In this document: piece after piece, positions 3,090 through 60,288 of the stretch
Numbering within the stretch: position 1 is the first letter of the stretch
How the letters are laid out: every line of letters starts with the position of its first letter
NCBI RefSeq assembly: GCF_035594765.1
Contig: NC_085842.1
Coordinates: 208,579,747-208,643,746 of the forward strand
From: Anolis carolinensis
Lineage: Eukaryota
Direction of reading: 5' to 3'
Length of the DNA stretch: 64,000 bases
The notes under the pieces: generated by a model
Database searches by the model: none
What the model saw: only the letters and a program-made list of their open reading frames with translations
Told to the model about the DNA's origin: nothing
Program-made: the position numbers and the translations under genes

Positions 3090-3196
3090 TGTGTTGTTGA
3101 AGGCTTTCATGGCCGGAACCACTGGGTTGCTGTGAGTTTTCCGGGCTGTATGGCCACGTTCCAGAAGTAAACAGCCCGGAAAACTCTCAGCAACCC
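3090..3196 (-). mobile_element. Fold-back PLE pLTR fragment
   Basis: Reverse-strand tail and pLTR, then an inverted arm ending CAGCAACCC. TSD AATATAGAAAGG at 3078-3089 and 3197-3208. Confidence 0.85.
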
Positions 3197-3524
3197 AATA
3201 TAGAAAGGTGTTTTCTACTCTCCTAGCAGGATCTTGAGAATGGTTTGGGAAACTTAACTGAAGAATCCTTTCTCAGTCCTCTGGGCTGGTTCCAGTCATT
3301 ACTAGGATTATTATTATTTTAAGGAGTAGGAATGGGGGAGGAGAATATATATGCCTTATCACGCCTAAAATGTGACTGCCCTGGAAAAAAAAGAACAAAC
3401 ATGTGACCGGGGAGAAATTACAGTTCACACATCTCTTAGACCCTCCCTCACCTCCCCCACCCCACACCCCATATCCCAATCCCTCCTTGAACCACTCAGT
3501 GGAAGCAAAACCCAAATGGAGGAG

Positions 3525-3603
3525 AAGAAGAGAGAGAGAGAAAGAGAAAGAGAGAAGTTCACCAGCTCTCCATCCCCTCGCTCTCTACTCTGAATGCAGC
3601 TTC

Positions 3604-3679
<76 letters not shown>

Positions 3680-3723
3680 CACCAGCTATCCATCCCTTTG
3701 CTCTCTGCTCTGAATGCTGCTTC
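3525..3723. repeat. (GA)n tract (3605-3674) flanked by a duplicated ~50-bp unit
   Basis: GAGAAGTTCACCAGCT-TCCATCCC...CTCTGAATGC-GCTTC occurs at 3552 and 3672. Confidence 0.9.
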
Positions 3724-3879
3724 CAATCCAAAGGGTGGGTGTGTGCTGGTGCTGGTGGTGGTGGTGGTGCGCCTGGCAGCAGAAAATGATTACAAATCTG
3801 CGATTGATTTTCATAATGTTTCTGCGGTGTTTGAAAACCAATCGTTTGAACCTCTGAGATCTTACCTAAGTGAACCACT

Positions 3880-3990
3880 CCTACGCCTACGCGCGCCCTA
3901 AGTGCTTTCCCCTCCAAACTGATATATGACAATATCTACTTTGAGGGGGGGGATCACGTGTCCTGGAGCGAGCGACTAAGACGGATCGCG
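3880..3990 (+). promoter_or_regulatory. HOXC11 proximal promoter / CpG-island edge
   Basis: E-box CACGTG at 3955-3960. CpG-rich sequence continues through exon 1. Confidence 0.5.
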
Positions 3991-55864: not shown

Positions 55865-56839
55865 TTACCTAACAGTTCAAACTCAAGACCCAGCTTTTCA
55901 CTTCTAAAGAAAGGAGGCGTTACATTGACACGTTCCCAGACTGGGGATTAAAATCCTAAATACATTGACTTGGAACCAGGAAGACAGGAATGGCAAAGGG
56001 AGGAACAGCTGGACAGCAACTGAATAAACCAAGACAGGAGGGGAAATGCCCTCCGATTCCAGCACTTCAGGGTTGGTATTGTGGGACCATTGCGAATGAT
56101 CTCTTTGCCTGCAACCCACAAGTGAGTAAACCCCACTGAACACAGTGGCATTCACTTCCTAGTAATGTCTAAACTTGGGTTGCACATAAAGTCCCGTTTT
56201 CTGCACAAAGACTCTCAGATGACGACCACCTAGGGATGGATGGGTGGGTGATGGCTTCCTCTCCTCAAGTTTATTTTTTCCATCTCCTTTTGGTAACTTC
56301 CTGTTTACTGTTTCAACTGGTATTACATTTCTTTCCTCGCTATATGGTGCAGCTGCCTTTTCGCCTCTTCCAATTTCAAAAGCGTTGGTCTAGCAAAGAT
56401 GGTCCTTTCACTAGCTTTGACCAGAACGGCTGTGCACTGAAAAATCCCAGAGTTTCATATTTGTGGAGTCTTTTCCATCCTATTAAATGTGCGCCTGGGT
56501 AGGATGGGATTAAAGGGATCAAGTTTGCCTCTGGTCCCTCTCCAACCCACAAGATGAAGAGAATGCAGAAAGAGCCCTTAATGGAGGCATCAAAACCGGT
56601 CTTTGTGATAGAATGCAGAATATAACACACAATCTGGCTGAAATGGAACCCGCTCCACACCCTCCATCAAATGATAGGTCCCTTTGGGTGCCTTGACCCA
56701 CCCAGGTCCACACTTTTGTCGCTAAATGCTGCTTGTCTGAAATGGATTCTGACAGCAAGGAGAATGGCGCTTCAGAGCCTCTCCTCCTTTTCTCTCCTTC
56801 CATTTCTGTTAAGCACAACAGTCACGCATCATGGGATAA

Positions 56840-56974
56840 TGTGTTGTCGAAGGCTTTCATGACTGGAATCACTGGGTTGCTGTGAGTTTTCCGAGCTGTA
56901 TGGCCATGTTCCATAAGCATTTTCTCCTGACGTTTTGCCTGCATCTATGACAGGCATCCTCGGAGATTGTGAGG
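56840..56974 (-). mobile_element. PLE pLTR fragment with degenerate hammerhead
   Basis: Reverse complement of tail and pLTR. TCATGGGATA is repeated at ~56829 and ~56991 (possible TSD). Confidence 0.85.
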
Positions 56975-59456
56975 TGGTGATGGGACAGTTTCATGGGATA
57001 GTTTGTCCAGTTTGCGAGTGCAAGGGGGGATAAGTGGGGAGGGAAGGAGATTCCGTGGAAATGCTCTCTACACGTGTTAGGAAAGGGCACAGCGACCTAT
57101 TGGGACCTATTCCTACAGACAGACATCTCCTCCTGTTTGGTGAGCCCGCATCCTCCAGCGGCATCTGGTCTGCAAATGGACAGGTTGTTTATACTGATAG
57201 CCAGATAAGCCATTGTGGGATTCCTGAGAGAGATCCTGGCTTAGTCAAATGAATCTGGAAAAGAGTCTGGGAGGTTGGGAACATTCCTAGCTTCTCCAAA
57301 AACCCACCCAGAGGTCCTTAACTATGCGAGTGACTGCACTAAATGTGTGTGTGTGTGTTTCTCTGTGCTGGACTCTACAGAAGGCAACTGTACAAAGGAA
57401 CAGGGAAAGGGGGTCTCTATATGTCTTCTACCTCCCCGCATCCACATTTCAGCAAATTGCTTTTATGGAGGGTTTAGAAACCCGGTCAGGTGTTGAGGAT
57501 CCTCAATGCCTTCTGCTTTAAGTACCCCGCCAAAGCCGTGAACCTGACAATAACAACAAATTTCATAACAATAAAAGTCTAGCGCAGGTTATCTCCAAAG
57601 GCACACCTTTCTCCAAAAAAGGGGGGGTCCTATGTTCTTGCCCATGGCGGCCCTGCTTCCCAGGTGATGAATGCAGGTTCTGTCGACTTTCCCCCCATTT
57701 TTCCCCACTCCAAAACCCAGTTCGGGGAATATCTGATTGCGACAAAAACAGAGATAGAGAATTACGACCATTTTAATGGTTGGGGAATGGTCTCCATCCC
57801 ACAGGCATACATAACCCAAGCAGGGTCTTTGCGCCCTCTGGATAGGATCCGAATCCACGGCAAGAGGCGCACGCAGCCCTTCTCCAAAAGGCTTCTCCTC
57901 CTGGAGTGGACACCCTTAGGCTCTGTCCATTCGCCTCTTCTATGCCAGGGACCGGCCATAAAGCGTGCCAAGGTGTAGGCTTTGTGAGACTGCAAGGTAA
58001 GCCGTTTTATTACTCATCCTAAGGTAAGGGGCCCGGTTAATGGTGTCTGGGTATGTGTGCTGTGTATATACAGTGCACATACCACACATACTTTATATAC
58101 ATGTGGCATACCATGTGTAGTATTCCATATGCATATCTGGAATGTATGTATCCATCACGCGAATAAGCAAAAAGTTGGACTCCGACCCCAGCCTTCCAAA
58201 GCCAAGCTCGGAGCCCTTTTTTTTCTCTTGCTAGTGAACTACCCTTGTCTTCTTTGAGCTTACCCTCTTCTTCCTCTCTTCCCCCCTTCTTTATCGCTCT
58301 TCGCGGTTTAAGAAAGCCATTGGTTGGATAGTCCGACATTGGGTTTTAAATAGCTCTAAGACCGGCAAGGAAACTTACTTAATTTCAAAATAAGGCAATT
58401 GAGAATGGGAAAAAGGGGGGGGGGGCACAACAGAAGTGGGGGAGAAAAGAAGGGGAAAAAAAAGCTGTATCTGCAACCCATCCATCATATTTAAGTCCAC
58501 GTTCCTAAGTGGTTTGATTTGGAGGAATCTCCCGAACGAGACTTATCTATCATAGGGTTAGAAGTTAAATTATTGAAATTGCAAGGAAAAGCTGTTCCAT
58601 TTTGGGATGGGGGGATGTTTATGGCTTCTAGTCAAGGCAACCCATTCGCATCTTTCCATGAAACACGCAGTTTTTTTCATTTTATTTTTTTGATTTGGGT
58701 AATCACTTCATCATTGGAAGGGGGGGAAAGAAGTGAGACTGAGGGGAAAGGGCCATTTTTATGGGGCGAAGTAATTTGAAAGAAGATAACGCCTTTCACA
58801 AAGTGGCTGATTCGGAAATGATCATTACTTTACTATTACTGAAATGAGATTCATCCACCCGCCTGGAGTAAGAAATATCACCGTATTCTGCAGAGGGTTT
58901 TTTTTTGTTTTTTTTATTAACCAATCAAAATTCTCTCAAATCTCCATTTGTGATTTGTAGGGAAAAAATATAATTCCTCCAAAAGCTGCATTGGAACATA
59001 TTGCTCATTTTCTCTTAATTTATTATTCTAATCACAGCAGCAGTTACACGATAATGCATCCATTAGGTGGGTGGAGAGGGATGCTGTGTAGTCATTTCGA
59101 TTCGATATCGGGCAATGTACACAAAGGGCATTTGACACATAGATGCCAAAGTTTGCAGGCACCAAGTTTTCAGACAGAAATCTAGAATAATCGGAAGGAG
59201 AAAAAATTGTAAAATAAAGTCGGGAAATTTTAATTTCTCTTCAATTTCTCTCTATTTTTTTCTCTCCCCCCTTTTCTGTTTTCCTCTTATCTTTTTTACA
59301 ACTCAGTTTTAGATTGGACATTTAGTTTTCTTGCAATGTTCAGCAATCTTTCCATCTTTTCCTCTCCAATCGGACATTAAATCCGCATCAGGAGCGGACA
59401 ACATGCTTTTCCGGACTAAAGAAGTGTGTGAAAGAAAAGCAGGATAGAGACACAAA

Positions 59457-59606
59457 GGGCCCTTCTACACAGCTGAATAAAATTGCACATTATCTGCTTT
59501 ATACTGGGATATAGGGCAGTGTGGACTCAAATATCCTAGTTCAAAGCAGATATTGTGAGATTTTCTGCCTTGATATTCTGGGGTATATAGCTGTGTGGAA
59601 GAGCCC
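59457..59606 (-). mobile_element. Same MITE family, opposite orientation
   Basis: GGGCCCTTCTACACAGCTG...CTGTGTGGAAGAGCCC, with AAA on both flanks. Confidence 0.7.
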
Positions 59607-60138
59607 AAAAGGAAATGGGGGAAAGGCATAGATGTGGGACAAAACTGTTCAGGACAGGTTAGGTTTGCTCCTGATAGAGAGATCAAAATGTCCTGTTCGT
59701 TTTATGGGACCCTTTTTCTCCCTGGAAAAGGGAGCGTCCATTGTCTCCCCAGTCGCCCTTGTGAGGGTTCCTTCCTCGTCGTAACTTTTAACTACCTGTT
59801 ATAAAATTTATGGGCGGTTTGTAAAAAAAGGAAAGAAAGAAAAAGTAATTTCCGTTCCATCCGGTTGGACTGCAAGCTATGGTGTGTTTTCAGACAGACA
59901 AACACTCGCACATGTATTGGGGAACACACCCACACTTTGCTTTCTCCAAAAAAACATGCCGAAAACAAGAGTCAACTGCCTGGCTAAGAAAGAAAAGCAA
60001 TGGCTGGCACAATCCAGCCCCATTTTCCCCGTGAGAAATGGGTAAGTAGGTAAAGTCGGGCAGAAGATAGAATCCAAGGTAGACTTCCTACTTCTCCTCA
60101 CCAAATTGTCTTTCTGCCCCTCCACAAAATGATGTCTA

Positions 60139-60288
60139 TGTGTTGTCGAAGGCTTTCATGGGTGGAATCACTGGGTTGCTGAGAGTTTTCCGGGCTGTAT
60201 GACCAAGTTCCAGAAGCATTCTTTCCTTTTCCAAAAGGAAATAATGCTTCTGGAACATGGCCATACAGCCCGGAAAACTCTCAGCAAC
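60139..60288 (-). mobile_element. Fold-back PLE pLTR turning at the hammerhead cleavage site
   Basis: Arms end at 60227 and restart at 60236. TSD-like ACAAAATGATG at 60124 and 60287. Confidence 0.85.

Follow-up and report, generated by a model that had tools for sequence, protein, structure and literature searches.

Head-to-head Penelope 3′ stubs in the anole HoxC region and their probable origin by double target-priming

Endonuclease-bearing Penelope-like elements (PLEs) have been reported to produce insertions with inverted pLTRs and a tail of 30-40 bp on one side only (PMC3846280, PMC8557442, PMC2377424). The accessible text of these reports attributes the inversion to self-priming and sees the tail as a product of endonuclease resolution, and one of them describes the way in which the inverted repeats and the tail arise as undefined (PMC8557442). 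For PAc (Poseidon_Ac), an anole element, the protein was found in vitro to nick and extend both target strands and to initiate reverse transcription from two RNA positions on either side of the tail, one of them at ORF nt 111-118 (PMC11167929). Later steps of PAc integration were left unvalidated there. The consulted text reports the cut preference solely as ATT or AT-rich and is silent on inverted insertions, duplications, staggered nicks and twin priming. In LINE-1 twin priming, or the proposed dual priming, both nicks prime and inverted halves lie within one duplication, joined by microhomology or end-joining (PMC2837659, in its accessible part).

We analyzed a 64-kb stretch of the anole genome, here called the window, whose HoxC intergenic DNA carries seven head-to-head pairs of Penelope 3′ stubs. 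These hairpins derive from a Poseidon-type Penelope element whose subfamily is sister to PAc of anole, in line with the Penelope-like origin proposed in an earlier note on this DNA. Assignment to the Penelope/Poseidon clade is based on the terminus, which is nearly identical to the RNA in Suppl. Fig. 1 of the PAc report (PMC11167929). Also shared with PAc, as described in the accessible text, are the ORF start in the putative hammerhead stem II and the tail end at ORF nt 118. In element coordinates, where 0 is the last C of CAGCAACCC, the tail is +1..+34 and negative values run toward the element 5′ end, an ATG at -83 lies inside a CTGAGGA...GAAAC core plus stem II, with the hammerhead-like core positions CTGAGGA at -89 and GAAAC at -62. 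An Rfam search over the window listed no hammerhead family. A TATA-like box is located ~30 nt above a candidate transcript start at -102. The window copies differ from PAc in belonging to an older sister subfamily, each arm being ~5% off its majority sequence at non-CpG sites; exact matches of the young subfamily to the PAc RNA motif number 10,889 in the anole genome. In one long young-subfamily copy, Pfam RVT_1 matched at 8e-10. In the window's subfamily, the sequence preceding the terminus can be read as GVYRIPCSCGQVYIG followed by histidines, a GIY-YIG/CCHH motif recognized by eye; GIY-YIG was not matched in the Pfam search. The seven hairpins are too short to contain the endonuclease motif. 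The PLE hallmarks of 5′ truncation, inverted arrangement and target duplication are present. Like the published inverted-pLTR insertions, as far as these are described in the accessible text, the anole pairs are head-to-head, have a one-sided tail and are flanked as a whole unit by a duplication, but the anole unit often consists of a mere two stubs of 25-130 nt.

All seven inverted pairs listed in the earlier note were recovered, with arm lengths of 24-89 bp. Copy 3090 consists of a tailed arm (3090..3167, minus strand, element -43..+34) and a tail-less arm (3171..3196, plus, -25..0); the core AATATAGAAAGG occurs at 3078-3089 and 3197-3208 within an AAC...GTTT site, and the exact duplication is 16 nt (core 12). 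In copy 12797 the tailed arm (12797..12927, minus, -100..+30) and tail-less arm (12923..13011, plus, -88..0) turn with a 5-nt TGAGG microhomology, and the duplication matches at 8 of 10 positions, a weak signal given that 3 of 42 mismatched pairings pass too. The tailed arm of copy 14580 (14580..14683, minus, -81..+34, less ~12 nt deleted from the tail) is joined to a tail-less arm (14685..14756, plus, -71..0), with 11 of 13 positions matching between 14568-14580 and 14756-14768. Copy 16552 combines a tail-less arm (16553..16631, minus, -80..-1) with a tailed arm (16635..16730, plus, -61..+34) between duplicated 9-nt T/A runs (16542-16550 and 16732-16740). In this copy it is the tail-less arm that extends further 5′, contrary to what fold-back requires. 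In copy 33371 a tailed arm extending to the candidate transcript start (33371..33501, minus, -102..+34) meets a tail-less arm (33501..33576, plus, -75..0), and the duplication is an exact 14 nt, letters shared with the element ends included. Copy 60139 has a tailed arm (60139..60227, minus, -54..+34), a tail-less arm (60236..60288, plus, about -54..-2) and an 11-nt duplication (60124-60134 and 60287-60297). The exception to these six tailed/tail-less pairs is copy 44647, in which a short tail-less arm (44647..44670, minus, -23..0) faces another tail-less arm (44669..44760, plus, -91..0) and a target duplication is absent.

The earlier note had stated that the inverted arm stops at the boundary before the tail in all seven copies. 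One arm does end no more than 2 nt away from the final C of CAGCAACCC in each, but at 44647 neither arm has a tail. Its observation that turn points differ also stood, all seven inner turns being distinct, whereas its range of 7-12 bp for the duplications is too short if bases that also belong to the element ends are included, as at 3090 and 33371. Assembled contigs from other sequencing runs span unique flank into the hairpins.

The fixed end at the tail boundary holds genome-wide. Two exact 12-mer anchors detected 1337 head-to-head pairs, compared with zero for the reversed control pattern, so the layout is not a matter of chance. The outer ends of pairs correspond to ORF nt 84 (the boundary) and ORF nt 118 (the tail end). 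Of 226 head-to-head clusters, 166 had the 34-nt tail on one arm and the other 60 deviated from clean tail/no-tail pairing, and among loci picked by a single-arm pattern, 29/84 and 22/58 were clean tail/no-tail pairs. Only 31 of the 1337 pairs were double-tailed, against 193 expected under independent ends (a 6-fold depletion, p about 3e-52), and a duplication accompanied just 1 of 10 double-tailed and double-tail-less pairs. Most of the genome sample was drawn from a single contig (C1), and loci targeted as pairs covered spans of less than ~430 nt.

Young pairs were flanked by a duplication in 35 of 38 cases, with a mode of 13 nt, compared with 5% in shuffled controls. There is a weak palindromic target preference, AAAC-N12-GTTT, visible from both ends. 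AAAC left of the duplication and GTTT right of it were each found at 19/118 sites (16% per side) versus 14-15 of 472 distant windows. AAAC also occurred 11-13 nt outside the tail-less end in 45/81 rows and outside the tail end in 51/99 rows, where 20% was expected in either case, and in three of four sequencing runs the loose-end majorities showed AAAAAC ~12 nt beyond the tail-less end. A symmetric target indicates two element-made nicks, without showing that both of them prime.

The pairs are best read as independent, 5′-truncated copies of a Poseidon-type Penelope element inserted head to head, and we consider double target-priming, with a separate cDNA started from each of two staggered nicks, to be their likely origin. 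A predicted protein dimer would occupy the weakly palindromic AAAC-N12-GTTT site and nick the strands about 12-13 bp apart. Priming would take place at the tail end (ORF nt ~118) from one nick and at the boundary (ORF nt 84) from the second. Both cDNAs would then extend toward the RNA 5′ end, often running off near -102, the probable transcript start, after which host end-joining would fuse the two cDNA 3′ ends and gap-filling would yield the duplication. This order of events is inferred from genomic end products. Double priming is supported by the fact that both genomic outer ends correspond to the two starts of reverse transcription detected in vitro (PMC11167929, accessible text). Within this model, we lean slightly toward the strict pairing being due to one RNA that serves both active sites. 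As in LINE-1 twin priming, two inverted fragments lie inside one target duplication. The second LINE-1 primer, however, anneals at an internal position that varies, and the two halves have no sequence in common (PMC2837659, in the consulted part), whereas the anole starts are fixed and 34 nt apart and the arms usually overlap, duplicating the same stretch. The inverted outcome is also common in anole, as the clean pairs above illustrate, and a non-overlapping, LINE-1-like form was seen at two loci only (L093 and L258).

Arm reach and inner junctions bear on how the second arm was made. Among 125 simple pairs, the tail-less arm reached further 5′ in 70 (by more than 100 nt in 22), the tailed arm in 32, and the two were equal in 23; with a 15-nt margin, the tail-less arm was longer in 53 and the tailed arm in 26. 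Untargeted by-catch pairs (n=32) gave 21 and 5, respectively. At L093 and L258 the second arm is tail nt +20/21..+34 alone, with zero arm overlap and a 12-nt duplication. Filler DNA was present at 68/120 junctions, and of the 52 filler-free junctions, 31 had microhomology of at least 2 nt versus 19% in the null, in agreement with the turn microhomology described in the earlier note. That note had also placed the turns in or beside the hammerhead. Inner ends are indeed concentrated directly upstream of its core, at -93..-107 (66/250 arms), but not at the cut site (7/250 in -60..-55), and hammerhead cleavage was rejected as the cause of turning.

A free hairpin intermediate is improbable. Such a hairpin, formed for example by self-priming on an antisense template (PMC3846280, accessible text), would be trimmed by the endonuclease at both tail ends and joined to a staggered target cut. 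It directly accounts for one-tailed pairing and shared variants and accommodates L093 and L258; with a 3′ overhang it predicts a longer tail-less arm, the commoner class, and, if cut in either polarity, it could reproduce the observed arm reach. However, a fixed cut polarity permits one reach class, and both are common even with the 15-nt margin. Filler junctions are difficult to obtain from self-annealing. In addition, strand transfer or ligation, which the hairpin requires, is undemonstrated for this protein, whereas target-primed starts at both sites were demonstrated (PMC11167929, in the text available).

Somewhat less probable still is that two separate RNAs prime the two nicks, or that successive insertions hit one site; the two-RNA form overlaps in part with the double target-priming model. 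Two RNAs would spare one polymerase from displacing the cDNA of the other, and the arms belong to different subfamilies in 5/147 callable pairs. The arm subfamily is identical in the other 142, however, and independent choice of starts predicts the 193 double-tailed pairs that contrast with the 31 observed; pairs with two tails or none also mostly lack a duplication. For sequential insertions, a single shared 13-nt duplication is unexpected. Young arms shared variants 3-fold over shuffled pairs, which together with the pairing bias is consistent with, without proving, one RNA molecule serving both primers; such sharing could alternatively come from a single master element active at a time. Gene conversion is not needed to explain arm similarity, old arms being ~10% apart at non-CpG sites, slightly below shuffled pairs. 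Shared rare variants numbered 40 versus 544 one-arm variants. Limited gene conversion may occur within short hairpins, sharing being higher at spans of 250 nt or less.

Fold-back, in which a single target-primed, tailed cDNA copies itself and is then nicked or stalled at the tail boundary, was the mechanism favored in the earlier note, and resolution of the tail by the endonuclease is a published guess (PMC8557442, accessible text). We regard it as very unlikely. In its favor, microhomology at turns is enriched, the tailed arm is longer in 32/125 pairs and in four of the seven window copies, and the few perfectly symmetric junctions (-102/-102 twice, -92/-92 twice) suit it equally well. Yet fold-back requires a tail-less arm nested in the tailed arm, and in 70 of 125 pairs the tail-less arm outreaches its supposed template. 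The arms without overlap at L093 and L258 and the frequent filler also speak against it, and the boundary is itself a start of reverse transcription in vitro (PMC11167929, accessible text) and terminates single-arm copies that have duplications. Arm reach refutes fold-back as a general route and argues against both self-priming and endonuclease tail resolution as the general explanation, although fold-back could be behind a minority of insertions. Amplification of the hairpins as a non-autonomous MITE family is hardly credible, despite their resemblance to terminal inverted repeats with duplications and four junction types seen twice, since 116 of 120 junctions are distinct and there is thus no common internal sequence or length, the repeated junctions coincide with naturally occurring short inverted repeats or with the pile-up at -102, arms vary from about 15 to over 1400 nt in length, the ends are asymmetric by the 34-nt tail with symmetric double-tailed pairs depleted, and the genome sample yielded no large sets of copies whose junction and filler agree while their flanks differ. 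Independent integration, as the earlier note had concluded, is thus upheld.

Single-arm copies are common, and double priming is therefore not obligatory. Four tailed ones are present in the window: 409..922 (plus, -505..+34), which includes the end of the endonuclease coding region and has a 12-nt duplication with 1 mismatch; 9630..9820 (plus, -162..+34); 34662..35248 (plus, -549..+34); and 56840..56975 (minus, -101..+34). Young single-arm tail-less copies had a duplication of 10-14 nt in 8/20 cases versus 1% in controls. A search for hidden partners detected an inverted tail fragment at 2/63 tail-less single arms (0 in controls) and a boundary fragment at 1/50 tailed single arms (2 in controls).

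A miR-196 precursor, a Hox cluster marker outside the elements, was identified at 28513..28586 (plus) above the Rfam gathering score. Rfam microRNA matches on the hairpins were under gathering scores and were taken as chance. The Hox location adds little, because element density (11 per 64 kb) is just ~2x the 5.6 of flanking samples (p about 0.03) in a window that had been selected for containing these elements, and TE-rich Hox clusters in anole are already published (PMC6791295). Most likely the hairpins are functionless by-products.

Although the hairpin layout was already published, we found no earlier report of the strict tailed/tail-less pairing, the ~13 bp duplication or the AAAC-N12-GTTT preference, nor an earlier account of PLE inversions by double priming, in the open literature (subscription papers being outside coverage). 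More than a thousand naturally made end products are available in the anole genome for the single PLE family that works in vitro. More tentatively, integration of Poseidon-type Penelope elements may be routinely two-primer: a homodimer on AAAC-N12-GTTT would, like a homing nuclease, nick about 13 bp apart, and one RNA would give each nick one of two AC-rich starts 34 nt apart, the tail-less start first. If true, a single two-primer geometry would account for three traits of the class as a whole, namely its inverted pLTR, its tail on one side and its constant duplication length. Predictions for the PAc assay are nicks 12-13 bp apart, a preference for AAAC-N12-GTTT, and a different start site for each target strand. 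If these hold, PLEs would integrate by a route that uses two primers and differs from standard LINE priming, with a bearing on attempts to employ such proteins for DNA writing.

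The seven inverted duplications that the earlier note had described in the window (G000:C2:208579747-208643746) were all head-to-head pairs, in which the 3′ end of the element points outward on either side. With the last C of CAGCAACCC taken as position 0, and negative positions running toward the element 5′ end, six of the seven combined one tailed arm (to +30 to +34) with one whose end lay between -2 and +1. The pair at 44647 had no tail, inner ends at -23 and -91 and no target duplication. Target duplications, previously reported for several copies, were clear at 3090, 33371 and 60139 (inner ends of tailed/tail-less arms -43/-25, -102/-75 and -54/-54, respectively), plausible at 14580 and 16552 (-81/-71 and -61/-80) and weak at 12797 (-100/-88). 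Just beyond a TA run, at 60345-60388, the tail-less end of the 60139 copy and its right flank recur as a degenerate local duplicate.

The homeobox exons of the window, which we assign to HoxC11, C10, C9 and C8, contained none of the seven hairpins; miR-196 is also in the window. If transcribed, the arms are predicted to form long stable hairpins. Four single-arm tailed copies were also detected, and the density of Penelope-like elements (PLEs) was approximately twice that of flanking samples, in accord with the transposable element-rich anole Hox clusters described in the available text of PMC6791295. The element terminus was a near match to the RNA of PAc, the A. carolinensis Penelope element (Suppl. 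Fig. 1, PMC11167929), whose exact motif occurred 10,889 times genome-wide. Upstream of the terminus, a GIY-YIG-like motif was recognized by eye, and a reverse transcriptase domain was found there in one long copy of the young subfamily.

Using exact patterns, we identified 1337 head-to-head pairs genome-wide, in which 1017 arms carried the first five tail letters; both arms carried them in 31 pairs versus 193 under independence. The 351 pairs without an exact tail start include tails masked by mutation, and only 6/226 pairs in the aligned sample lacked both tails. This sample (296 loci and the window) yielded 519 clusters, reduced to 428 by removal of duplicates and edge cases and to 425 by a second filter. 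Among 226 head-to-head clusters, 166 were clean pairs of a tail and a no-tail arm, and the remaining 60 had internal or ambiguous ends. Loci came mainly from one contig (C1), some through pair-targeted patterns; untargeted by-catch agreed (32/55 clean pairs).

Target duplications of 10-15 nt (mode 13) flanked 35/38 young pairs, and duplications were found for 92/128 older pairs (5% in shuffled controls); their core was mostly 9-12 nt once letters common to element ends were removed. In 118 rebuilt empty sites, AAAC occurred 19 times on the left and GTTT 19 times on the right, and neither on the opposite side. Among the rows listed, AAAC lay 11-13 nt beyond the tail-less end in 45/81 (after removal of 19/100 that repeated one context) and beyond the tail end in 51/99 (one removed), versus 20% expected, both with a peak at 12. 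The two element ends are thus positioned alike relative to a site with weak palindromic symmetry, as expected if a dimer nicked both strands.

The inverted pairs most likely arose by double-nick priming and central joining of two cDNAs: each of two nicks would prime its own cDNA, with synthesis starting at the tail end from one nick and at the boundary from the other, before the products are joined in the middle. Trimming of a free hairpin by the endonuclease is a minority possibility. The self-primed fold-back favored in the earlier note, in which one tailed cDNA copies itself, did not survive as the general route. A tail-less arm templated by the tailed cDNA could not reach further 5′; however, among 125 simple pairs (single hit per arm, gap of at most 30 nt), it did so in 70, versus 32 with a further-reaching tailed arm and 23 equal (5-nt margin). 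At a 15-nt margin the counts were 53 and 26, and the tail-less excess was above 100 nt in 22 pairs. In two loci (L093 and L258) the tailed arm was just the final 14-15 nt of the tail, such that the arms had no common sequence, and yet one 12-nt duplication flanked the whole unit. Tail-less single-arm copies had 10-14 nt duplications in 8/20 young cases. Filler was present at 68 of 120 measurable junctions (5/125 were excluded because arms were too short), and 31 of the 52 filler-free junctions showed microhomology of at least 2 nt (19% null), which is an end-joining signature of two separate ends. A few symmetric junctions may be attributable to fold-back. A MITE family was ruled out, as the earlier note had argued in favor of independent integrations, by filler/microhomology junctions that were distinct in 116/120. 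Double-nick priming would work like L1 twin priming as presented in the available text of PMC2837659, but it differs in its two fixed starts and in having arms that repeat the same element sequence.

Of 151 pairs compared, 147 were callable, and in 142 of these the two arms came from one subfamily. Young arms shared 48 variants (0.017/site versus 0.005 shuffled, exceeding all 200 shuffles). These results are equally consistent with a single RNA and with a single source active at any one time. Inner ends clustered at -93 to -107 (66/250 arms; 22/40 of the youngest), approximately 30 nt downstream of a TATA-like box at -133, and fell off steeply thereafter (6 in the following 15 nt). This pile-up probably reflects run-off at the transcript 5′ end, although some older copies may inflate it since subfamilies diverge upstream of -101. 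In three loci (L222, L229 and L248), the tailed arm was of the young subfamily and its tail-less partner of an older one, and two of them (L229 and L248) had no duplication; these are possibly new insertions into old copies.

Other repeats were seen alongside. The young tail-less leader (-103..0) adjoined the start of a very common, presumably SINE-like repeat (121 local hits) in 17 of 100 rows listed, for example at L288:3934-4400. Several copies were paired with ~1.42 kb between them (G000:C1 53111727/53113143, 74570865/74572282, 88285085/88286501 and 39179803/39181248), which suggests that the Penelope leader was captured by a composite, LTR-bearing element that then amplified. Short element units formed tandem arrays in L037, L043 and L053, the last with a head-to-head unit repeated ~6 times at a ~159-nt period. 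A second, unrelated short inverted-repeat family (window 47905-47990, 49613-49822, 59479-59564 and 61157-61247; arms 34-37 nt) probably represents non-autonomous DNA transposons. In the HoxC10 intron region (23993-24234), a single 37-nt arm faced three inverted partners in an expanded foldback repeat.

The element family and inverted layout are already known: in the portions available, PMC3846280, PMC8557442 and PMC2377424 describe PLEs with inverted pLTRs and a 30-40 bp tail on one side, for which self-priming and endonuclease resolution have been put forward as causes. According to the available text of PMC11167929, purified PAc, a predicted dimer, cuts and extends both target strands and initiates reverse transcription internally at two positions, one on either side of the tail. 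The main start was placed there at ORF nt 111-118; in our coordinates, ORF nt 84 marks the tail boundary and ORF nt 118 the tail end. The fixed end therefore corresponds to a priming site that was already known. In both references, the two start sites (-12..0 and +23..+34) resemble each other in their closing CAAC(A/C)C context, a candidate priming recognition motif. The text of PMC11167929 contains no discussion of inverted insertions, duplications or stagger, and the literature searched yielded no account of the strict end pairing, the 13-nt duplication or the palindromic target. These three features bring a standing question within reach of an assay that already exists.
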